Below are positions 12,394 through 32,000 of a DNA stretch of 32,000 bases, piece by piece. Where the stretch lies: assembly GCF_000283555.1 (NCBI RefSeq), contig NC_016012.1, positions 1-32,000 on the forward strand, given 5' to 3'. The DNA comes from Candidatus Arthromitus sp. SFB-rat-Yit. Its GTDB lineage: Bacteria > Bacillota > Clostridia > Clostridiales > Clostridiaceae. Every line of letters begins with the position of its first letter. The first letter of the stretch is position 1. Made by a program: the position numbers and the translations under genes. The notes under the pieces were generated by a model. The model made no database searches, had not been told where the DNA came from, and saw nothing but the letters and a program-made list of their open reading frames with translations.

Positions 12394-12484
12394 GGAGAGA
12401 TGGTCGAGTGGTTTAAGGCACCGGTCTTGAAAACCGGCGTGCGTTGATAGCGTACCGTGGGTTCGAATCCCACTCTCTCCGCCA
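12394..12484 (+). tRNA. tRNA-Ser (anticodon TGA)
   Basis: 91 nt class II tRNA with long variable arm. Acceptor GGAGAGA/TCTCTCC, anticodon loop CTTGAAA, T-loop TTCGAAT, encoded CCA. Confidence 0.93.
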
Positions 12485-12495
12485 ATTAATTTTTT

Positions 12496-12586
12496 GGAGA
12501 AATACTCAAGTGGCTAAAGAGGCACCCCTGCTAAGGGTGTAGGCTAGGAAACTGGTGCGAGGGTTCGAATCCCTCTTTCTCCGCCA
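12496..12586 (+). tRNA. tRNA-Ser (anticodon GCT)
   Basis: 91 nt class II tRNA. Acceptor GGAGAAA/TTTCTCC, anticodon arm CACCC-CTGCTAA-GGGTG, encoded CCA. Confidence 0.93.
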
Positions 12587-22829: not shown

Positions 22830-22906
22830 GCACAGGTAGCTCAGTTGGATAGAGTAGCTGGCTACGAACCAGTTGGTCGGGGGTTCGAATCCTCTCCTGT
22901 GTGCCA
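22830..22906 (+). tRNA. tRNA-Arg (anticodon ACG)
   Basis: 77 nt. Acceptor GCACAGG/CCTGTGT (G1:U72 wobble), anticodon arm GCTGG-CTACGAA-CCAGT, T-loop TTCGAAT, encoded CCA. Confidence 0.9.
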
Positions 22907-22955: not shown

Positions 22956-23051
22956 ATATATAAATGTTAAGGAGATATTTAAATTGTCAAAATGATAGCT
23001 CAGAAAATATAGTATTAAAATTATATTTTAAAATTTTAGGAGGATAAAATT

Positions 23052-23477
23052 ATGGTAAAACCTTTTATAACGTTTAAAGGAAATGCAAATGAGGCTATTA
23101 ACTTCTATGAGGAGGTATTTAATGGCACAGATAAGAAGGTAATGTATTACGGAGATATGCCAAGTGATCCTGAGTTTAAAATAGATGAGAATAAAAAGAA
23201 TTGGGTGCTTCATGGAACGCTTAATATTTGTGGATCAGAGATTATGTTTTCTGATACAGATGAGAGTTTACATAATGAAAATACTTTTAACCCTTCTTGT
23301 ATGATTTCTATTGCTGTTGATTTTAAAAGTGAAGATGAGATACGTTCAGCTTATGAAAAGCTTAAAGAGGGTGGATATGTTATGATGGAGCTTTCTCCTC
23401 AATTTTTTGCAGGACTCTATGCTTGGGTTTCTGACAAATTTGGGGTAACTTGGCAAATGACATATAGTACTCATTAA
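23052..23477 (+). CDS. VOC-family / PhnB-like (glyoxalase fold) protein
   Basis: 141 aa, RBS AGGAGG. PFITFKGNANEAINFYEEVF ... FGVTWQ is characteristic of the PhnB-like / 3-demethylubiquinone methyltransferase-domain family. G+C is intermediate (~1/3 by hand count). Confidence 0.78.
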   Translation: MVKPFITFKGNANEAINFYEEVFNGTDKKVMYYGDMPSDPEFKIDENKKNWVLHGTLNICGSEIMFSDTDESLHNENTFNPSCMISIAVDFKSEDEIRSAYEKLKEGGYVMMELSPQFFAGLYAWVSDKFGVTWQMTYSTH

Positions 23478-23618
23478 TGATATTTGTAGGAAGATATGTC
23501 TAAAAAGAGGGGTAAAAATAATACAGCTTATACAGTCGAAAATGGCGAGATCGATGATTGTCTTATGTTCACTCTCGACATAGCACTGCGCAATCTTGCT
23601 ATCGTTGACTTTCGTTTT

Positions 23619-24037
23619 TTACGTCAGATAATCTATGGTGTAGGTTTTTTGCAGAGGGTCATCGACTTTGTACTTATCGTTTGGAATTATCTGCTTGATC
23701 GTCGTGGTGTTACACTTTGGCTTGTTTACCGGTGACGCCAATCGGATGATGGACACTGGAATGTCAAGTACATGGTTATTTGCCGATAGAAAACAGAAAA
23801 TATCGTATTATTTTGCCGTTAATGAAATCTCCTGACCATTGCTTATAATTTTTCTGCGGCAAGGTTTATTTCAAGTCCGGGAAATGATATTATCGGCTCA
23901 TCTCGAAGTTCTAACTTTTCCAAATCAGGGTGGCGTGACCAAAAAAGATAAAATATCTTCAAATGCCGAACTGTCACGCTCTGTTAACTTTAATATAATG
24001 ATTCGTCTGATAGTACCACCTCCTTGATGATTACCAT
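23619..24037 (-). pseudogene. Remnant of an OmpR/PhoB-type response regulator (winged-helix part recognisable, receiver mostly deleted)
   Basis: Stitching three minus-strand frames gives MVIIKEVVLSDESL.. / ..IIILKLTERDSS..HPDLEKLELRDEPIISFPGLEINLAAEK / IISNGQEISLTAK[TAA]YDIFCFLSANNHVL...TYTIDYLT[TAA]. The LTxKE(F/Y)..L..L pattern is typical of Trans_reg_C domains. At ~139 codons it is too short for a full regulator. Confidence 0.3.
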
Positions 24038-24085
24038 TTTTAGAATCTAATCCTATGCTTATTCCTCGATATTGATTTGCTGATC

Positions 24086-24984
24086 CTAATAGAGTTTGTT
24101 ACTCATAATTTCAGGACTTTCCCCAATAAAGGCTTTTGCTGCTTCTTCATCGCCCTGAAGCTGCCACATAAACCATGCGGTCAAGCCACCCGCTTATACA
24201 TCATATCACCATGTGTCATGCCAACTCTTCTAGCCATAACTTTGGGTGAAGTAATTTTATTGTACATCTTATTAATTTCAGCTATTGGGATAACAATTTT
24301 GGTTTCAAAATCACCGCTGGTTCCGGCAAGCATTAGAATAGGACAATTTGTCTTCGCGGAATCGTAGGGATAGTCTGTTGTATGTTCAGCGGTTTTTTCG
24401 CTTATAGGAGAAAGCAGCATAGCAGTTTTGAATGACTTTCTTCAAACATAGTAATCGCACGCAGAGTTGCAGCAACGCCCTGAGAAAATCCTGTAATGCA
24501 TATATTCTCTACATCAATTTTGTCGTAGAAAATACTGTCCTTGTTTTCATTTTCTCCGAGAATATAGTTCAGCGTTTTGATTGTCGTTTCGCCCTTGTCT
24601 GTCCCTTTGTCCTGCGTTCCTACAACAATAAATCACCAAGAAGCTAATTGGCTCAAATTCAGGATCATACTTTGTTGCTTTGAATCCTGTACCGTTTATC
24701 ACAAGTATAATCGGATATTAGTTATCGGTTGTTTCAAGCTCACTCGGATAATAAATTGTGTATTTTTTGATTGGATCTTCTGCTTTCACAGTTTCCTTCG
24801 AGGTTTCATATGTACCGTTTTGTAGATACTTTTTTTCTATTTCCTTGCCTGTTTCTATTTTCTCATTATAGCATTTATGTATAATCGGGGCATTATCCGC
24901 CCAAAGATATCAAACTACAATGAGCGCAATCAAAACTAATATAATGATAAAGATCACTTTTAGAATTTTGGGTAATGTTTTTAT
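24086..24984 (-). pseudogene. Decayed membrane-anchored alpha/beta hydrolase (dienelactone-hydrolase/chlorophyllase-like)
   Basis: Minus strand reads (ATA)KTLPKILKVIFIIILVLIALIVV[TGA]YLWADN...ETTDN[TAA]YPIILVINGTGFKATKYDPEFE / QLASW[TGA]FIVVGTQDKG...ICITGFSQGVAATLRAI (GxSxG) / MLLSPIS...CPILMLAGTSGD...GMTHGDMMY / LTAWFMWQLQGDEEAAKAFIGESPEIMSNKLY[TAG]. That is three in-frame stops, at least three frame changes and no ATG. Confidence 0.7.
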
Positions 24985-25006
24985 TGTTTACTTTTTTCTG
25001 AATTTG

Positions 25007-26140
25007 TCAGTATTGTTTATTAACCAAATCAAGACCGTAGTCCACCAGTTTGCCGTTTATTGCGTCGTTAAGCCATCCGGCGATAGACTGTTTTTGTTCC
25101 TCAAACGGCAGCCATACGGCAGGAGTTGCGATAATGGTATGTGCTGTCATATTTCTCGGATCGTCATACCATGCAACGCCATCCCAAATGAACAGGCTTA
25201 CACCGATTTCCTTAAATTGTGGAATGATGTCTTTTAGTATATGCTGATAAATGTCCGCTTCTTTTTCCGATACATCCATTACACCCGTGTCGAGATAATT
25301 CTGCACCTTTGCCAAATCGCCATCTCTAGTGGAGCTATCGAATAGAATATGGATACCATCACCGTATTTTTCATGCAGGGCAGTAAGACAGTCCAGCGTG
25401 AGATTATTGCCTGTCAGCTTATCCGAGATTTCTTTCGGAGTTTTCCAAACATCGGTTGCGACAGTGTGCCAATCGTCATATAGCAAGAGGGATGCATCTA
25501 CTAAAACATTTTTGCTTACCGAATTCGGAAAGTAGTTTGTAAAAATATCGTCAGAAAGAAGCGCCGCTCCAAATCCTCCGGCACTATATCCAGTAACAAC
25601 GACTGTATCGGGATTATCAATACCAGCAAGCTCCGTTATTTTCTTCATTGATTCTGTATAATTTACATAACCGTTGTGGTAAAGAATCTTCTCTTTGCCG
25701 TTTTTATCAGTATAATGAAATTCGCCTGTTCCAGCATGGAAATCCCCCGTTGCATAGGGAAATAGGATAATGCTCCAGTTTTCAAACGGACTGTTCTCCA
25801 CATCAGAAGCAAGACCGCCCATGTTCATTGTGACATTTGCCAGTATATCCGGCCATACCATTTTTGTGTTGTAATTGTCATTTTTAGCTGTTTCCTCGTT
25901 AATGCTGACACCGCCTCCGGCAAAATAGATCATTACTTTATTCTCGCTACCTTTTTTGAAAAGGGCGTGATAGCCGTTTCCTTCGGAATCCTTCATCTCA
26001 TTGGTTTCAACACGATACCATTTTCCCTCGGCAGGGTTTTTCTTCAAATTCGGGTATCGCAGTACGAGGAAATACACGAGCAATACGATGGCAATAAGAA
26101 CCAATAAAATGATTCTAATTATTTTTAATGCTTTTTTCAT
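25007..26140 (-). CDS. Membrane-anchored alpha/beta hydrolase, pectin-acetylesterase-family-like
   Basis: Intact 377-aa ORF. N-terminal TM IIRIILLVLIAIVLLVYFLVL, FAGGG oxyanion-type motif, nucleophile elbow VTGYSAGGFGA. The family assignment is from remembered motif patterns. Confidence 0.7.
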   Translation of the reverse strand: MKKALKIIRIILLVLIAIVLLVYFLVLRYPNLKKNPAEGKWYRVETNEMKDSEGNGYHALFKKGSENKVMIYFAGGGVSINEETAKNDNYNTKMVWPDILANVTMNMGGLASDVENSPFENWSIILFPYATGDFHAGTGEFHYTDKNGKEKILYHNGYVNYTESMKKITELAGIDNPDTVVVTGYSAGGFGAALLSDDIFTNYFPNSVSKNVLVDASLLLYDDWHTVATDVWKTPKEISDKLTGNNLTLDCLTALHEKYGDGIHILFDSSTRDGDLAKVQNYLDTGVMDVSEKEADIYQHILKDIIPQFKEIGVSLFIWDGVAWYDDPRNMTAHTIIATPAVWLPFEEQKQSIAGWLNDAINGKLVDYGLDLVNKQY

Positions 26141-26151
26141 AACTTTTTCTC

Positions 26152-27138
26152 CTATTTTACAGGCATATACTTGTCGAGGTATTCTTCAACTGTCTTCATA
26201 TATTCTTTCATAACGTCATTGTCATTTTGAACACCGTGTCTCGAATGAGTTGCTTCAAAGAGCTTGTAATCAACACCGTTATCTTTAAGTGCTTTCACCA
26301 AATGACGCACGCCTTTCCACGGCTGCACCCTGTCATGCGTACCGTAGAGCAGGAGACTTGGACAGGAATTTTCATTAACAAAACGGAAAGCAGAAATTGA
26401 TTTTATCAGTTCCTGATAAGAACCGTCTTTTATCATGTCGGGAGTGAGTTCCACTCCACCCATGACGCTGAATAAACCCGATGCTGCTCTTCTTGAATCG
26501 TCCATATCCTGATCAAGTCCGTATATTCCCCAATCCTCTGCATAGAAGCTGGATGGACCAACCATTTCAAACATCAGCTTGACGGGAACGGGAGACTGTG
26601 TAGCGTCTCTGTATGCGTAAAGCATAGCAAGACAGCCTCCGGAAGAACCACTGGATATTGTCATTTCCGTAATGTTATAGCCAAGCTTCTTTGCTTCTTC
26701 AATGACAACAGGCATAGCTGCTTTGATTTCACTCGACTGTGTAAGAATGCTTTTATTGTTTTCGTCGGTACGGAGCGTGTAATTTATGCCGCAGGTTACA
26801 TAGTCCTTACTGCACAGCCACGCAAGCATTTCCTTATCATCGGCTTTATCTCCTGTTGTAAATCAGCCTGCGTGAAGATAGACAACCAAGCCGTAGCTTT
26901 CTTTTGTGTTATCCTTTGGAAGATAAAGGTCAAATTTATTTGCTCCACCGTTGCCATAGGAAATATCGGTTTTCAGTATTCCAAGCTCGTCGCTCCATTG
27001 AACGCTGTAATTTTTTGCCCATGACGGTTTAATCGCAACTTTTGATATCATGCCGCCCACAAAAGCCAAAATAAATACCAAAATTCCGATTCCAATTGGC
27101 ACGGCTCTCACCTTCTTTTCTTTCTTTATTTTGTTCAT
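26152..27138 (-). pseudogene. Membrane-anchored esterase/lipase (fold-3 / BD-FAE-like) interrupted by one in-frame TGA
   Basis: ORFs 26863..27138 and 26152..26829 are one frame: ...GLVVYLHAG[TGA 26863-26865]FTTGDKADDKEMLAW... The nucleophile is in TISSGSSGGCLA and the C-terminal His in EATHSRHG. It is 328 codons if the TGA is read as sense. Confidence 0.78.
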
Positions 27139-27269
27139 AAGAAATTACCTCCGAACATCGTTCCGCCGAGTAAAAGGTTCATAACGACTCTGACTGCAAG
27201 TCTGTCGAGAACAAACGCTACAACGGCAATAAATATTAGAATAATCCATTTTTTCTGGGTTAGTTTCAT
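27135..27269 (-). CDS. Small hydrophobic peptide (44 aa), translationally coupled to the esterase
   Basis: MKLTQKKWIILIFIAVVAFVLDRLAVRVVMNLLLGGTMFGGNFL. RBS GAAAGGA 9 nt upstream. Its TGA overlaps the esterase ATG (ATGA at 27135-27138). Below the ORF-track size cutoff. Confidence 0.4.
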   Translation of the reverse strand: MKLTQKKWIILIFIAVVAFVLDRLAVRVVMNLLLGGTMFGGNFL

Positions 27270-27321
27270 TTCTGTAAATTCCTTTCTGCCATTACATATT
27301 GATTTTTTGTTTACAGCGTGC

Positions 27322-27367
27322 TATCATAATGATGATACACTTGTTTTGGTGATGTTATTGTATCATC
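27322..27367. promoter_or_regulatory. Candidate TetR operator: interlocking inverted repeats built on TATCAT/ATGATA
   Basis: TATCAT-aatg-ATGATA (27322-27337), and GATGATACA (27331-27339) paired with TGTATCATC (27359-27367). They lie in the 130-nt divergent region between the small-peptide/hydrolase operon and the TetR gene. Confidence 0.35.
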
Positions 27368-27399
27368 GGATTTTATTAACGTCAATGGGAGGTGATAAA

Positions 27400-27933
27400 A
27401 TGAGACAAACTCCAAAAAATGTATCACCGTTCAGCAATCAAGCGAGAAACGCTTATGTTATAGAGCATATTACGGACTCACTATTGAAGTTATTGCGGGA
27501 CAAGCATATAGGTGATATATCCATTAGCGAACTATGCGACCTTGCCGGTATCGGTAGAGCTTCGTTTTATCGGAATTTTGAAAGCAAAGAGGACATTTTG
27601 CGGGGATATATCAATAAAATATTCAAAGAATGGATGAACGAAGCAGATGGAAAAGAAAACAGACCGTTAAGCGAATTGCTCGGCTTACTGTTTGTACATT
27701 TTGAAAAACATAGAAATTTTTACAGTTTATTAAATGAAAGAAATCTTGTGCACCTTTTGAAAGATGTTATTATCGGATTATGCGGACCGAAACCCGAACA
27801 TTCAAAGGTGGAAGCATACGCAAAGGCATATGTAGCATATACGTTGTACGGATGGATTGAAGTGTGGTTTCAAAGGGGAATGCATGAATCAGCGGAAGAA
27901 ATCATAGAAATGTTTAAGGGTCAGGGATTATAA
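27400..27933 (+). CDS. TetR/AcrR-family transcriptional regulator
   Basis: The ORF track starts at 27307, but RBS GGGAGGTG precedes ATG 27400 (MRQTPKNV...). HTH ISISELCDLAGIGRASFYRNFESKEDIL. 177 aa, intact. Confidence 0.85.
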   Translation: MRQTPKNVSPFSNQARNAYVIEHITDSLLKLLRDKHIGDISISELCDLAGIGRASFYRNFESKEDILRGYINKIFKEWMNEADGKENRPLSELLGLLFVHFEKHRNFYSLLNERNLVHLLKDVIIGLCGPKPEHSKVEAYAKAYVAYTLYGWIEVWFQRGMHESAEEIIEMFKGQGL

Positions 27934-27957
27934 TGTAAATGTACTTTACGAAAACTA

Positions 27958-28233
27958 TTATTGAATACCTTTTGATTTTTCCTCAAGTGTGTTCAGGTCT
28001 TCAAAAGTAGAGGGTTCAAATCTATATGGGGAGGGTTTGCGCACCTTTCCACTTTCCAGGAACTACAGATTTACAAATTTGGTATTTTTTGTATGAAAGC
28101 TGAATAGTAGCTTACCTGTGCCGTGAGGGAATGGTGCAGTTGCTCGGTCTCCATTGAAACGCGGGCAGAGGCAGCGACCTTTTTTTGCTGGTAGTTGCAG
28201 GATTTATGATTCGATTTTCCTTATTTTTCCCAT
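27958..28233 (-). pseudogene. N-terminal stub of a large serine recombinase
   Basis: MGKIRKIES.. then, in another frame, KKVAASARVSMETEQLHHSLTAQVSYYSAFIQKIPNL[TAA]. This matches the RVAAYARVST...Q..YY...I catalytic-Ser region. About 90 codons remain of a protein that is normally 500 aa or more, and it abuts the TetR 3' end. Confidence 0.55.
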
Positions 28234-28423
28234 AAAATCATATCCTTTTCGCTATAATATATCATTCTAAAATAGACACATAGTAAGTCTTACGGGAATA
28301 ATAATGTTGAGAATTTCGTCTCGTATTTTGCCCGCAGTTTTGTATCAATCTACTCAGTTATGGGTTATTTTTCACAGAGGTTTTTCGCTATCGTGATGGC
28401 GATGGGATACTTCTTTTTTTGCT

Positions 28424-28860
28424 TCAAATTAATGTTTGCTCATTGCTATCACCGTCTTTGAACCTATCTGAAATATAGCAGGTATGGCAGTAGTATTTTC
28501 GGTGGATGTTGCCGTATGCTGAGAACAGCTTTTCGTATTCGATGCAGGTGCATGAGTAGATAGCTTTGCGAGTGATTTTTTCCGGGAACGCGTTCCACCA
28601 CTTGTAGCGACACTCATTGGAGTAGAATTTTTTTTCTTTCCTGACGTACACCTGCGTTATTGCTTTCCCATATTCTAGGCAGAATGAGGGGGAGAGGATA
28701 GGAATATCGGTGTGCTTCCCAATGCTGCTCTCGATATGTTGTTCCGTTTGCAGTAAGACTTGACCGTGTTCTTTGACAGGTCGAGTGTCTGTTTGATCTT
28801 GGTATATCTGAAGTTTTGTGAGCGTAAAGCCGTGATTTCGGGTTTTTGCTAAATGTCCAT
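28424..28860 (-). pseudogene. Sigma-70 region-4-like HTH plus zinc-ribbon protein (element-associated), disrupted
   Basis: MDI[TAG 28849-28851]QKPEITALRSQNFRYTKIKQTLDLSKNTVKSYCKRNNIS..., then a frameshift around 28680-28710 (contains a G5/C5 run). It continues FCLEYGKAITQVYVRKEKKFYSNECRYKWWNAF...TCIEYEKLFSAYGNIHRKYYCHTCYISDRF. Several expected CxxC cysteines read Tyr. Confidence 0.6.
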
Positions 28861-28950
28861 AAGAGTAAACTTCACTTCATGTCTTCTGTCAGAGGGAAAA
28901 GGCGGTTTTCATACCCCTTACGTTGAAAAGTGTACGAAACTGCCGAAAGA

Positions 28951-29330
28951 TTAGTCTTTCATATGGAAATCGTAGATATAGCTGTCCGTTCAGAAATTGA
29001 GTCCCGGTGTTCAGTCGGGAACCTATCTATTTGTTCATACAGAATGTTAAGTGATATCTTTGGATCAGCCTCGATTATAAGCTCGTCATGTATGTGCATG
29101 ACGATGGAGCAGCATCGCAGCGTATTTATGTAATTGAAGAGTATGTTCGCGGGAAATAGCCTGGACGATGTTCTCCATGAACTTGGGAGTGTAGGATTCG
29201 ATTATGTGAGCTTGTCGTCCGAAACGATTATGCAGTCGAAAGTGCTGAACGAAATGGGAACATAGATAGTAAAGTTAAACCTTGTTTTAATGAATACCTG
29301 TGCGTCAGAGTAGGTTTGTTGTTCCTGTGT
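28951..29330 (-). pseudogene. C-terminal remnant of a family-A-like (phage/element type) DNA polymerase
   Basis: ...SIVMHIHDELIIEADPKISLNILYEQIDR (HDE motif at 29082-29090), then in a shifted frame TPGLNF[stop]TDSYIYDFHMKD[TAA 28951-28953]. It resembles the VHDE...PW.PGL.L.A.GY...FY.KD termini of such polymerases (from memory). The upstream limit is uncertain. Confidence 0.35.
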
Positions 29331-29381
29331 CATCTGCTCCAGGACGTAATCTTTGTAGGAGTCTGTTAGTTCCTCGCTCTC

Positions 29382-29708
29382 TCATAAAAACGGTAGTTCT
29401 TTAGCAAAGCCCCTTATGAACACCATTTTGTCAAGATCGCTTCTTATTGATTTCGACTTTTTAATGGCAAGCATGGATTCCGTCGCATCAAGGCAAACCA
29501 CTATACGTATGTACGGTGCAAAACTGCGGGAGATGGCACAGGTGCCTGCCACAACTTCCAGCATGGTCATATCTTTGTCAGAGGAATAGTATGAACGATC
29601 ATTTTAAGATAATTCTCATTTTGTAAAGTTGACGACCTTGATATCAAACCCTTCTGCTTGTGTTTCAAATGATTTGTTTATTATCTCAAGATTCTCAGGT
29701 TTCTTCAT
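29382..29708 (-). pseudogene. N-terminal fragment of a class I SAM-dependent methyltransferase (type 11-like)
   Basis: MKKPENLEIINKSFETQAEGFDIKVVNFTK[TGA 29616-29618]ELS[TAA 29604-29606]NDRS...DMTMLEVVAGTCAISRSFAPYIRIVVCLDATESMLAIKK...MVFIRGFAKELPFL[TGA 29382-29384]. Motif I (LEVxxGTC) and the LPF post-II motif are present. The downstream MTase core is not recognisable. The ATG overlaps the ogt stop (ATGA). Confidence 0.55.
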
Positions 29709-30243
29709 AATGCCGTATCTTTCTTCGGAATAAAGAAATTCGTTATATTGACTTTTTCCATTGTAAGGAGTCGCATTTTCTTATCGATTCCTCCAGCGTA
29801 CCCCGTAAGTCTGCCGTTTGTGCTAACCACTCTATGGTAGGGGATAATCAGTAAGATGGAATTGTGACTAACCGCACTACCAACCGCCTGTGCGGACATA
29901 CGGGAGAGTCCTTTTTGTTTCGCTATTTTCTCTGCAATCTCTCCATAGGTGATTGTTTTGCCGAATGGTATTGTCAGAATGATCTCCCATACTGCTTTCC
30001 TAAATTCTGTAGTTTTCATGCGAAGTGGTGGCGTAAAATCAGTAGTATTTCCGGGAAAATAGATATCCAGCCATTTATTTGTTTCCCTAAAAATGGGCAG
30101 GAGTTTTTCATTGTGATCTTTCCTAAGCGTATTGGCAAAATACTTCTGCTCGTCAAACCATAGCCCGATTAGTGCATTGCCGTCGCTTGCAAGTGTAATA
30201 CTGCCAAGCGGCGAATTATGGTGATGTGTATATTCTAGGTCAT
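29705..30243 (-). pseudogene. ogt: Methylated-DNA--protein-cysteine methyltransferase (Ogt/AdaB type) with 5' frameshift and acceptor Cys replaced by Tyr
   Basis: The frame of ORF 29705..30019 extends upstream without stops as ..EYTHHHNSPLGSITLASDGNALIGLWFDEQKYFANTL...DFTPPLRMKTTEFRKAVWEIIL, a full-length Ogt. Both candidate ATGs (30243, 30258) are out of frame. The active site reads IPYHRV (TAC at 29837-29839) instead of PCHRV. Confidence 0.7.
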
Positions 30244-30263
30244 TCCTTCAGTATTCATTGGAA

Positions 30264-30805
30264 TCAGCGTAAGTCTTGGATATGTCTGTATCCGTTTATA
30301 TACGGATAGTAGAGCATACGGTGATCCAATAGCTTTTGAACAGATTTTTTCGTTTTTCTTTTTGGATCATGTGATGCTCCACGACATTGCGTCATATGGG
30401 AATTGCCTACTCGTCTGTATAGACGAGTAGGCAGCAGTTTTCCTTCCTCATTTAGCCGTGAATCGTTTCGTACAAATAAAGTCCTCAAATACGGCAAGTA
30501 GAGGTTTTAAACTGCGGCCAAGTCAAGATACCTTTTCATACCTTACCTTTGTTGGTTTTATCCCAAGCAGCACAATCATTCCGCTCATTATTCGTGTTCT
30601 TCTTTCCATTTTTCAGTCTTGTATCGTTTGTAAGGTCGGTATCCATCACGCAGCGCATCATCCAAATTGTCGTAAAATTATATGTTCTTATGCAGTGGTT
30701 TCGTATGGAAGCTTGGCAGATACACTATCCCTGTGGTACGAAGGTCTACATAGAATAGCCCGTTACAGTATGTATCTCTTTCCTGTATAGCCTTGATTTT
30801 TTCAT
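30264..30805 (-). pseudogene. adaA: AdaA-type regulator (Ada Zn-binding N-domain plus AraC HTH), heavily disrupted
   Basis: ATG 30805-30803 overlaps the alkA stop. An A6 run puts the Ada frame out of register. That frame reads KIKAIQERDTYCNGLFYVDLRTTGIVYLPSFHTKPLHKNI[TAA]FYDNLDDALRDGYRPYKRYKTEKW, followed by 6 more in-frame TAA/TGA, then LDLAAV.NLYLPYLRTLF...SHMTQCRGAS (AraC-like tail). Confidence 0.7.
30404..30433. repeat. Perfect 12-bp inverted repeat (hairpin) inside the adaA remnant
   Basis: TGCCTACTCGTC-tgtata-GACGAGTAGGCA. All 12 pairs were verified by hand. No T-run follows on the minus strand and only a weak TTTTCC follows on the plus strand. Confidence 0.85.
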
Positions 30806-31470
30806 TTCGTGTTATTTTTTACTCCTTTTGTTAATTTCTTTGTGGGAGCAGGATCGGTAAATCCTGGAACAGTACCGCCTGCAACGGCCCAAAAGTATAG
30901 ACTTGCTACGCTACCATAAGGAGAGAGGCGTTTCCTGTATTTTTCAAACTGCTTCCTGTCAATCTCACGATGCTGATAAACCATTCTCATACCACGCAGA
31001 ATCGCTAAATCACCGAAGCTTAGGATATTTGGTCTTTGCAGACAGAATATTAGAATCATCTCCGCTGTCCATACTCCTATGCCTTTTAAATTCACAAGTG
31101 CATCTATTGCTTCTGTATCAGACATCTTTTTTACGGCAGCTAGGTCAAATTTGCCTATAGTAACTTTTTCGGAAAAGTCCTTGATATACTCCGCCTTGCG
31201 GAAAGTCATTCCCAGAGATTGTAGTTCTGCTATATTTGCACTGTTGATTGTTTCCGGCGTTACTTTGCCAAGATAATCATTCATTCGCTGCCATATAGTC
31301 CGATGTGCCTTTGTGGAAATCTGCTGCCCTATAATGTGATGTACGACAGAGGAGAACAGATCGGAATCTACCTCCCGGTCAATATGCCCCACATGATCGA
31401 TGACCCATGCGAGTTTCTTATCCTTAGATTTAAGATATTCTACAGCTTCATCGCCATACTCAAAATACAT
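30802..31470 (-). CDS. alkA: DNA-3-methyladenine glycosylase II (AlkA-like, HhH-GPD superfamily)
   Basis: Intact. Likely start at M13 of the track ORF (MYFEYGDEAVEYL; the ORF track starts at 31506). HhH LVNLKGIGVWTAEMILIF and catalytic Asp in SFGDLAILRG. Confidence 0.8.
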   Translation of the reverse strand: MYFEYGDEAVEYLKSKDKKLAWVIDHVGHIDREVDSDLFSSVVHHIIGQQISTKAHRTIWQRMNDYLGKVTPETINSANIAELQSLGMTFRKAEYIKDFSEKVTIGKFDLAAVKKMSDTEAIDALVNLKGIGVWTAEMILIFCLQRPNILSFGDLAILRGMRMVYQHREIDRKQFEKYRKRLSPYGSVASLYFWAVAGGTVPGFTDPAPTKKLTKGVKNNTK

Positions 31471-31567
31471 CTTTTCACCGCTCACCGCCTTTATAAATCG
31501 CCTCATCTATACTATAATTATATCGCGAAACACTGGTATTTTCTATTAGAATGCTGTAGAATTTTAA

Positions 31568-32000
31568 CAATATATTTCAAACACTAACATTCAGGATGCG
31601 ATCACCTTGGAAAAACGGAATGTATATATCAATTTGGTTAATTTGAACCTGCATACCTACTTCTCGTACCTTGTTCTCAATGTTGAAAATGACACTTCTT
31701 ATCTGTTGAATCCGGGTTTACGTGTCATGCATTGGTATGAAGACCTATATTTTATCTATGTGATAGAATGAACGATATGTGTGAAGACGTTGGGAACAGA
31801 GGAAATTGGCTCTGTGGTAGATGGGATATACATCAACAAGAATGTCGTGCATCTGGTTGAAAATATCAGTGCTTGCAAGTATAAGAGTTTTCTTTTCCCG
31901 GAATACTTTGTTTATTATTACCTGATAGCACCGACAAGTTGCACTTACATACGTCATAACGTGAAACAGTGGAATCTCACTGATGATGCTATACGGCTCT
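31568..32000 (+). pseudogene. AraC/XylS-family regulator, N-terminal cupin part (partial at window end, no in-frame ATG, one in-frame TGA)
   Basis: A plus-strand frame is open from 31568 to the window end except for TGA 31769-31771: ...LNPGLRVMHWYEDLYFIYVIE[TGA]TICVKTLGTEEIGSVVDGIYINKNVVHLVENISACKYKSFLFPEYF. This resembles the HWH.E.E.IYV.EG...G..I.IN.N..H cupin pattern. It is divergent from alkA. Confidence 0.4.

Follow-up and report, generated by a model that had tools for sequence, protein, structure and literature searches.

A disrupted gene block next to tRNA-Arg(ACG) in the rat segmented filamentous bacterium: very probably a composite acquired island, mostly decaying under AT-biased mutation

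Segmented filamentous bacteria (SFB) live as host-restricted symbionts in the gut and have reduced genomes; they are best known as inducers of Th17 cells, and little has been written on the foreign DNA that reaches them. Amelioration and pseudogenisation of acquired DNA under a GC>AT bias belong to textbook knowledge: the amelioration model, in which acquired DNA drifts towards host composition, is said to go back to Lawrence and Ochman, and a universal GC>AT mutation bias has reportedly been described by Hershberg and Petrov and by Hildebrand et al. A second point of reference is Bacillus subtilis, where adaA-adaB/alkA forms the adaptive-response operon for alkylation repair. In mouse SFB, degraded prophage remnants (SFBMP02-04) and GC anomalies were noted and phages were proposed as the principal means by which genes are transferred into SFB (Kuwahara et al. 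2011, PMC3158464); the genome carries 24 pseudogenes in total (PMC3158464). The genome of Candidatus Arthromitus sp. SFB-rat-Yit has 1,515,556 bp and a GC content of 27.98% (PMC9482736, Table 1). Here we analysed a window of 32,000 nts of this genome (NC_016012.1), to which all positions refer, and in particular the higher-GC block which extends from ~23,000 to the window end. We consider it highly likely that this block is a composite, horizontally acquired island, most of which is decaying under the AT-biased mutation of its host. No published description of this rat SFB island was found in the literature searched.

The first 23 kb of the window carries dnaA, dnaN, recF, gyrB, gyrA, serS, addB, addA and their neighbours on the plus strand, with 20–31% GC and a GC skew of +0.3 to +0.45. 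In the block, GC is 37–43% and the skew is near 0. The step up in GC lies just 3′ of a tRNA-Arg(ACG) gene:

22830..22906, plus strand: tRNA-Arg(ACG), found by ARAGORN and Rfam; left boundary of the insertion

GC falls again to ~25% at the chrA genes, located in 4.6 kb of sequence beyond the window which comes from the DRR001117 Logan assembly. Both the GC skew and the direction of the genes suggest that the plus strand downstream of dnaA is the leading strand; mouse SFB have the same strand layout (Kuwahara et al., PMC3158464).

We observed that the site is empty in SFB-clade relatives, which were retrieved by contig scan and are 74–77% identical. In the comparison contigs L014 and L015 (L-numbers label such contigs throughout) the gene order is AddA, CCA, HD, DUF1189, tRNA-Arg(ACG), chrA, chrA, DHHW and MBOAT, with a tRNA-to-chrA gap of only 36–99 bp. 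Thus, the rat SFB lineage carries ~10.5 kb of extra DNA between tRNA-Arg(ACG) and chrA, from 22,907 to ~33,450, which starts ~23 kb from dnaA and runs ~1.4 kb past the window end. This DNA has the attributes of a genomic island: it is absent from the syntenic site of relatives, its composition is unlike that of the host, and it is adjacent to a tRNA gene and accompanied by fragments of a (non-functional) recombinase. Its components also have close, intact counterparts in conjugative elements, phages and chromosomes of gut Firmicutes.

In the block, lesions affect at least 12 of the ~16 gene units; PAE, TetR and alkA are intact, and one small open reading frame (ORF) is uncertain. In the host part, none of the 15 coding sequences is disrupted. 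A sequence-only reading of this DNA, which preceded the present analysis, had counted 10 broken genes out of ~14 against 0 of 15 (Fisher p = 5e-5 on those numbers) and thus slightly understated the contrast. Its list of intact genes, with PAE, TetR and alkA, holds good, except that the status of 27135..27269 is uncertain. All 15 host ORFs are long under translation table 11. Of the ten that were scanned, eight gave end-to-end Pfam matches (DnaA, DnaN, RecF, RemA-like, GyrB, GyrA, HD and SerS) and two gave none. AddA, CCA, the HD protein and DUF1189 aligned over their full length to relatives, and AddB showed Pfam domains.

Stops and frameshifts in such number could be sequencing or assembly errors of a 2011-era genome, or the higher-GC block could be a misjoined contaminant contig. 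The genome indeed dates from the early period of next-generation sequencing, and the two Logan contigs of run DRR001117 break inside the block, at ~23,918–23,942. However, contig DRR001117_176 equals the window over 23,942–32,000 (8,059 bp; 100% identity, 0 mismatches, 0 gaps) and contig DRR001117_54 extends from addAB through the tRNA gene to ~900 bp into the block, so that the two reproduce the block and its junction with the host. In addition, a 33-kb contig of run SRR19621095, from a second SFB lineage (lineage 2), spans host, island and host again; it differs from the window by 181 single-nucleotide polymorphisms (SNPs) and a few indels over ~20 kb and shares the stops and indels of the window. 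Lineage 2 is matched in turn by a third run, SRR19621104, and every stop or indel checked is also present in that lineage (SRR19621095 and SRR19621104). Moreover, the lesions are mostly substitutions and not changes in homopolymer length. Because the independent assembly is identical and the checked lesions are common to a second lineage, the lesions are not consensus errors, and, short of a template artefact common to all three datasets, an explanation by errors or misjoining is extremely improbable.

Two side observations concern these contigs. Both DRR001117 contigs end in the region of an OmpR-type remnant described below, leaving ~23 bases uncovered, and the lineage 2 contig runs through this region. 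A pair of neighbouring tRNA-Ser genes, with TGA and GCT anticodons, lies at 12,394–12,586, in the same place as in SFB-clade relatives, and by coordinate arithmetic the 33-kb contig ends near them.

The left part of the island, 23,791–27,940, is collinear with L094, a contig of GCA_902491535.1, over 4,160 bp at 89.9% identity. In L094, a TetR gene and, divergent from it, genes for BD-FAE (328 aa), PAE (377 aa) and a PETase-like hydrolase (310 aa) belong to a conjugative element that also carries MobL, Toprim, TraG and three tyrosine integrases. Variants of this four-gene cassette occur in other mobile elements, L009–L012 (Gemmiger-type) and L095–L097. Relaxase, coupling protein, type IV secretion and conjugative-element integrase genes, present around the cassette in L094 and L009, are absent from the window: only the cargo of the conjugative element is retained in SFB. 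Its features are as follows.

27400..27933, plus strand: TetR-family regulator, intact (Pfam TetR_N and TetR_C_8; 84% aa identity to the TetR of L094)
27135..27269, minus strand: 44-aa ORF upstream of BD-FAE, status uncertain (L094 has a 61-codon open frame upstream of BD-FAE, 70% identical)
26152..27138, minus strand: BD-FAE esterase pseudogene (Pfam BD-FAE; the intact L094 gene of 328 aa is 93.5% identical in DNA)
25007..26140, minus strand: PAE (pectin-acetylesterase-family) gene, intact (Pfam PAE; 96–97% DNA identity to L094 and to the copies in Gemmiger-type elements)
24086..24984, minus strand: PETase/chlorophyllase-family alpha/beta hydrolase pseudogene (repaired translation 87% identical over 100% of the length to the intact 310-aa P0146)
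23791..24037, minus strand: OmpR-type response-regulator remnant (~81% DNA identity to L094 downstream of the hydrolase)

Comparison with L094 codon by codon showed that the hydrolase has lost its start (ATG>ATA at 24982–84) and acquired four nonsense codons (TGG>TGA at 24910–12, CAA>TAA at 24718–20, GGA>TGA at 24633–35 and CAG>TAG at 24086–88), three frameshifts (+1 at 24651, -4 at ~24433 and -1 at ~24196) and one 3-bp deletion (-3 at ~24184). The stops, frame changes and ATA start that the sequence-only reading had listed for this gene coincide in position with this table. Similarly, the single TGA it had seen in the esterase is a nonsense mutation with respect to the intact gene of L094, GGC>TGA at 26863–26865.

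The OmpR remnant differs from these two genes. Its identity is indicated by weak matches to DNA-binding domains of ArlR (E about 0.3), and the same reading frames are interrupted in L094; as it is broken in this otherwise intact relative too, the remnant was probably imported already broken. The sequence-only reading had placed it at 23619–24037, of which the part 23,791–24,037 stands as OmpR-type, and 23,529–23,705 belongs to a serine recombinase. A PDB match of the latter stretch to the N-terminus of MurB (E 0.17) was rejected as spurious.

Regarding PAE, the copies at 96–97% DNA identity fall in a protein cluster of 227 members that includes Gemmiger formicilis. When compared with the Gemmiger-type element, identity drops abruptly at both ends of the gene, to ~60% in the adjoining BD-FAE. 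From these alignments, PAE appears to be exchanged as a unit among mobile elements of gut Firmicutes.

We then examined the direction of mutation in the four cargo genes, using three-taxon alignments (window, L094 and an outgroup) and assigning a change to one branch where the other two taxa agree. The SFB branch carried 88 GC>AT and 24 AT>GC changes with 7 others, corresponding to a per-site ratio of ~4.6, in contrast to 24, 27 and 6 on the L094 control branch (Fisher p = 1e-4). SNPs between the two SFB lineages, polarised with outgroups, gave a similar profile (GC>AT 32, AT>GC 7, other 1). The sequence-only reading had proposed such a GC>AT versus AT>GC test, having itself argued mainly from stop codons. 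Alone, stop codons are weak evidence because they are ascertainment-biased: by enumeration, a stop codon can arise through 23 different single-base changes, 12 of them GC>AT and only 2 AT>GC. That argument therefore does not establish polarity, and its conclusion, acquired DNA decaying under the AT bias of the host, is now supported by the empty site and by the spectrum of all substitutions.

The spectrum is also asymmetric between strands. On the window branch and with respect to the plus strand, C>T outnumbered G>A (55 vs 34) and C>A outnumbered G>T (24 vs 6); among recent inter-lineage SNPs, tallied by hand, the figures were 20 C>T vs 4 G>A (p = 0.0015). Leading-strand cytosines are thus the main mutation target, in agreement with the strong G-over-C skew of the host. 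Since the leading-strand C mutates and most island genes are on the minus strand, ATG>ATA, TGG>TGA, GGA>TGA and Cys>Tyr/Phe changes recur among the lesions. As to selection, the ratio of nonsynonymous to synonymous substitution rates (dN/dS) was 0.19–0.43 on the SFB branch against 0–0.20 on the control branch; it was raised in three of the four genes, including PAE with 0.22 on the SFB branch, the exception being TetR (0.19 vs 0.20). Constraint on these three genes is thus relaxed, although their values are not those of neutral evolution.

Phage-derived pieces were mapped by blastn and tblastn against gut-phage proteins of the proposed order Heliusvirales (records PV036431 and PV036449). Fragments of an exonuclease, a DNA polymerase, a helix-turn-helix (HTH)/Zn-ribbon protein and a serine integrase showed 40–72% aa identity to PV036431/PV036449, and these replication and lysogeny genes lie in a phage-like order:

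23529..23705, minus strand: serine recombinase/integrase, middle fragment (aa ~230–288), containing a stop (tblastn with gut-phage DNA invertase, E = 8e-7; weak Pfam Recombinase match)
27940..28235, minus strand: N-terminal stub of a serine recombinase (tblastn with phage DNA invertase, 72% identity, E = 1e-9)
28424..28860, minus strand: remnant of a phage HTH/Zn-ribbon gene (28439–28690 is 51% identical to aa 57–140 of a 140-aa phage protein)
28954..29202, minus strand: C-terminal stub of a family-A DNA polymerase (aa 564–646 of 646), over two frames (blastn and tblastn)
29205..29393, minus strand: DUF2800/PD-(D/E)XK exonuclease fragment, about aa 70–130 of ~370 (Pfam DUF2800, E = 1.7e-9; tblastn with phage exonuclease, aa 72–126)

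The best match of the N-terminal recombinase stub covers 28080–28187 (aa 17–52), its outer limits being read by eye from the translation. The two integrase pieces flank the cargo cassette in the correct order and on the correct strand, and homology to L094 stops at 27,940, where the N-terminal stub is cut off by the cassette. The simplest reading of this arrangement would be that the cassette sits inside the integrase gene. In the HTH/Zn-ribbon remnant, the Zn-ribbon part is in one frame, with several Cys replaced by Tyr or Phe, and a weak HTH-type Terminase_5 match (Pfam E 0.013) is in another. By blastn, the polymerase stub matches genes of Oscillospiraceae, Ruminococcus and Christensenellales phages. 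The cut-down recombinase, the C-terminal polymerase stub and the broken HTH/Zn-ribbon gene had all been recognised in the sequence-only reading, and gut-phage proteins bear them out. Pfam did not detect the OmpR, Resolvase and polymerase fragments, for which phage or conjugative-element homologues were needed. No phage structural, packaging or lysis gene gave a Pfam match at E <= 0.01–0.1 in six frames of 23,001–32,000, the Terminase_5/HTH match being the sole one of this kind in a lax fragment scan. The phage part thus consists of stubs only and is not a prophage in any functional sense. Megablast of 23,400–32,000 against plasmids and phages, and a more distant blastn search of 27,940–29,700 against plasmids, gave no matches.

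Between the tRNA gene and the middle integrase fragment lies one further gene:

23052..23477, plus strand: PhnB/glyoxalase-family gene, intact, 33% GC (Pfam 3-dmu-9_3-mt and Glyoxalase), inside the insertion

It has no homologue at the syntenic site of L013–L016 and may be a passenger that came earlier or in a separate event.

To the right of the phage stubs, 29,358–32,284 corresponds to a six-gene alkylation-repair operon. The metagenome contig L109 carries it intact and in the same order: AraC (294 aa, divergent) and then alkA (228 aa), Ada-Zn (79 aa), ABM (119 aa), ogt (179 aa) and a methyltransferase (259 aa). Only alkA is intact in the window.

31607..32000 and on to ~32,284, plus strand: AraC-family regulator pseudogene (tblastn with the intact AraC of L007 and L109)
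30802..31506, minus strand: alkA (DNA-3-methyladenine glycosylase II family), intact (Pfam HhH-GPD; 84% and 80% aa identity to intact relatives)
30585..30815, minus strand: Ada Zn-binding-domain gene (Ada-Zn), pseudogene of ~75 codons (Pfam Ada_Zn_binding, E = 1.7e-10)
30241..30588, minus strand: ABM (antibiotic-biosynthesis-monooxygenase-like) pseudogene, 119 codons (DNA alignment with 40 intact homologues)
29705..30238, minus strand: ogt pseudogene (Pfam Methyltransf_1N and DNA_binding_1; 80% identity over all 177 codons to the Ogt of L004)
29358..29708, minus strand: class I S-adenosylmethionine-dependent methyltransferase, N-terminal ~115 codons, truncated and with three stops (51% identity to aa 2–116 of the 259-aa gene that follows ogt in L109)

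The sequence-only reading had treated Ada-Zn and ABM as one 'adaA' gene with an A6 frameshift at 30797–30802 and seven in-frame stops, and had found the scarcity of indels unusual. Intact homologues show two genes, Ada-Zn (30815–30585) and ABM (30588–30241); intact Ada-Zn homologues of 70–85 aa occur between alkA and ABM. The A6 run lies inside the overlap of alkA and Ada-Zn and is no lesion, and the seven stops are an artefact of one frame forced across two genes. A homologous-protein search with the single-frame 'adaA' pseudo-protein gave no matches. Ada-Zn has lost its start (ATG>ATA at 30,815–13, overlapping the end of alkA) and has one TAA at 30678–80; compared by eye with its closest small-gene homologues (L132 type) it has no indel, and tblastn against L109 places a single one-codon gap. 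ABM has four frameshifting indels (+1, -1, -2 and -2) in 360 bp plus stops, its tblastn pieces being spread over three frames. With one stop in Ada-Zn and four indels in ABM, stops and indels are therefore in ordinary proportion. The ABM proteins of L095–L097 gave no match to the window ABM pseudogene at E < 1e-4.

Likewise, ogt does not have the 5′ frameshift previously ascribed to it, as its 177 codons are in one frame with no internal stop. Its lesions are a lost start, which was ATG and is ATA in lineage 2 and CTA in the window, and a catalytic Cys>Tyr change in the active site, PYHRV (29,837–29,839) instead of PCHRV as in L004 and L109. The Zn ligands of Ada are Y, F, Y, Y in the window and Y, C, Y, C in lineage 2, compared with C, C, C, C in intact homologues. 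The methyltransferase fragment with its three stops, already described as such, is borne out by L109 and abuts the exonuclease fragment. In AraC, the TGA noted earlier (31769–71) is real, more stops follow beyond the window and the C-terminal HTH is missing; the absence of an ATG is not a lesion, the intact L007 homologue being called from an aligned TTG. No AlkA relatives were found in viral contigs; nothing therefore indicates that the phage brought in the repair operon. Across the island we noticed that Cys codons have been lost repeatedly as TGY>TAY or TGY>TTY, at the Ogt active site, at the four Ada Zn ligands and at several Zn-ribbon positions (28,439–28,690).

Beyond the window, 32,208–33,449 (L002 3189–4430) contains a 413-codon ORF with a Pfam T1RH-like_C match, which we take to be the C-terminal portion of an R subunit of type I restriction (hsdR-like). 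Deletions of 268 bp and 117 bp disrupt it further in lineage 2.

One could suppose that these genes are not broken at all and that a different genetic code or recoding applies, TGA being read, for example, as Gly or Trp. TGA does occur at conserved Gly positions (BD-FAE G92, hydrolase G117 and in AraC) and at a conserved Trp (hydrolase W25). However, the same genes carry TAA or TAG stops, lost starts and frameshifting indels, and catalytic or metal-binding residues are gone (PCHR>PYHR in ogt, Cys in Ada). Moreover, the 15 host genes give long ORFs under table 11, GGA>TGA is expected from the frequent leading-strand C>A, and ARAGORN found no suppressor tRNA in the window. Recoding is hence barely conceivable.

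Another explanation is that the damage was mostly imported, the island having been a pseudogene mosaic already in a donor gut Firmicute, and that the AT-rich host is not its main cause. The OmpR remnant, likewise broken in L094, speaks for it, as do SFB-side dN/dS values below 1, the 39–45% GC of the cassette in the relative as well and the large deletions, which may have happened outside SFB. On the other hand, none of the non-SFB relatives recovered has a broken hydrolase, BD-FAE, ogt, AraC, Ada-Zn, ABM or methyltransferase gene, and the SFB-side branch carries the host signature of GC>AT changes with a leading-strand C bias. Decay also continues separately in the two lineages: the loss of two Ada Cys is confined to that of the window, and either lineage has stops that the other lacks. 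We thus regard mostly imported damage as quite unlikely. The attribution of the damage to an AT-biased host, made in the sequence-only reading, accordingly holds for decay by point mutation; it does not extend to OmpR, broken in the relative, or to the stubs, which stem from large deletions and, probably, from entry of the cassette into the integrase gene.

Several observations nevertheless weigh against, or qualify, an acquired island decaying under host mutation. No att-type direct repeat of at least 12 bp flanks the island, the longest exact repeat between its ends being 11 bp and AT-rich, and any mechanism of integration is therefore putative; decay of the att repeats, or use of a short core site by the serine integrase, might account for this. 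It is also conceivable that the two recombinase fragments stem from different genes. Amelioration is small, since the cassette has 39–45% GC in its intact relative and only ~2 GC points were lost on the SFB branch. The hydrolase dN/dS on this branch, 0.27, is well below 1, and values below 1 imply that part of the branch predates inactivation. Part of it possibly predates entry into SFB, and an intermediate host could be where some of the lesions arose. In PAE, alkA and TetR, synonymous changes are not in excess between the two lineages, so that current selection on them is conjectural; still, PAE, and perhaps TetR and alkA, would seem to have survived through selection rather than luck. Finally, inter-lineage SNP density within the island ranges from 0.1% to 9.6%, which simple clock-like neutral decay does not explain:

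Host backbone: 9 SNPs in 9.9 kb (0.1%)
'Cold' island zones: 31 SNPs in 6.7 kb (0.46%)
27,139–28,423 (around TetR): 30 SNPs (p = 2e-12)
30,241–30,801 (Ada/ABM): 21 SNPs (p = 9e-13)
30,471–30,663 (core): 18 SNPs in 193 bp (p = 9e-18)
hsdR-like zone: 81 SNPs in 848 aligned bp (9.6%)

In the hsdR-like zone, SNPs are distributed 17/17/47 over the three codon positions. This excess at the third position (p = 1.5e-5) points to recombination with a diverged allele, so that the zone looks like diverged functional alleles, one of which replaced the other by recombination at the island's right end. The TetR and Ada/ABM patches, which we compared with L008 and L093, are different: they are transition-rich (p = 0.02 vs cold zones), mostly C<->T on the plus strand, and their derived alleles interleave between the lineages. 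These properties, together with the contrast between 18 SNPs in 193 bp and the 0.1% of the backbone, would suit local hypermutability of 27,139–28,423 and 30,241–30,801, for instance cytosine deamination in single-stranded DNA, which would drive the dense Ada/ABM substitutions instead of a genome-wide bias. However, no sequence context was found at mutated cytosines, the 5′ and 3′ neighbours of 68 matching the background where a deaminase- or repeat-induced-point-mutation-like motif was sought. Moreover, the Ada/ABM patch is 77.6% identical to the outgroup L007, against ~80% for the adjoining alkA/AraC, which argues against a long-standing hotspot, and recombination as seen in the hsdR-like zone could explain the other patches too through short tracts. 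Local hypermutability is consequently rather unlikely. A more specific version, a persistent, strand-asymmetric cytosine hypermutation acting on the core 30,471–30,663 and on 27,139–28,423 at ~5–20 times the rate of neighbouring neutral DNA, independently in both lineages, is a shade less probable again; if true, a bacterial chromosome would show a local mutator effect resembling kataegis, and the patches would not be recombination tracts of a third lineage. The likelier origin of the Ada/ABM and TetR patches is recombination, in short tracts, with a third and more diverged lineage that also bears the island.

Taken together, the island consists of four parts. The first is the ends of a temperate phage as found in gut Oscillospiraceae, cut to stubs by large deletions; the second, the four-gene cargo cassette of gut Firmicute conjugative elements with the OmpR remnant, apparently placed inside the integrase gene; the third, the six-gene alkylation-repair operon; and the fourth, the C-terminal hsdR-like fragment beyond the window. 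The island would have arrived through the phage integrase, and the order in which the parts were acquired is inferred. Most island genes presumably had no function selected in SFB and would then have drifted under the mutation regime of the host. Under this regime G/C>A/T changes are about 4–7 times likelier per site than the reverse, and cytosines of the leading (plus) strand are most affected (C>T, C>A), which appears as coding-strand G>A and G>T in minus-strand genes. Small indels and large deletions add to the damage.

Conjugative-element and phage DNA of lumen Firmicutes (Gemmiger/Oscillospiraceae type) thus does enter an SFB chromosome. It appears to be mostly inactivated quickly, and its decay bears a readable signature of host mutation, giving a direct and internally controlled estimate of mutational bias in an organism that is hard to culture. 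The surviving PAE esterase, TetR and alkA are candidates for functions specific to the rat lineage. Annotation of the block should accordingly show pseudogenes and remnants, with 'adaA' split into Ada-Zn and ABM.

Compared with known systems, the island is an ordinary kind of feature that is unusually well documented here. With the mouse SFB prophage remnants it shares the host clade and the nature of foreign DNA of anomalous composition reduced to remnants; it differs by its tRNA-adjacent site, by its combination of phage stubs, conjugative-element cargo and a repair operon, and by its density, with at least 12 pseudogene remnants in ~10 kb against 24 pseudogenes in the entire mouse SFB genome (PMC3158464). 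The cassette has the same genes in the same order as modules of integrative conjugative or mobilizable elements of gut Firmicutes (L094, L009–L012 and L095–L097), at 82–97% DNA identity, but no conjugation, relaxase or tyrosine-integrase genes surround it and two of its four genes are inactivated. Similarly, the repair operon has in common with Ada operons (B. subtilis; L109) the AraC regulator, alkA, the Ada Zn-domain and ogt, in content and order, whereas in SFB the Ada Zn-domain is a stand-alone protein (~75–80 aa) that is not fused to an AraC HTH as in AdaA, and ABM and a methyltransferase are added. As for the amelioration model, the same drift, the same GC>AT bias and the same stops and indels in unselected genes are seen; here, however, the drift was measured on a single branch with an internal control, it is asymmetric between replication strands, and it amounts to only ~2 GC points.

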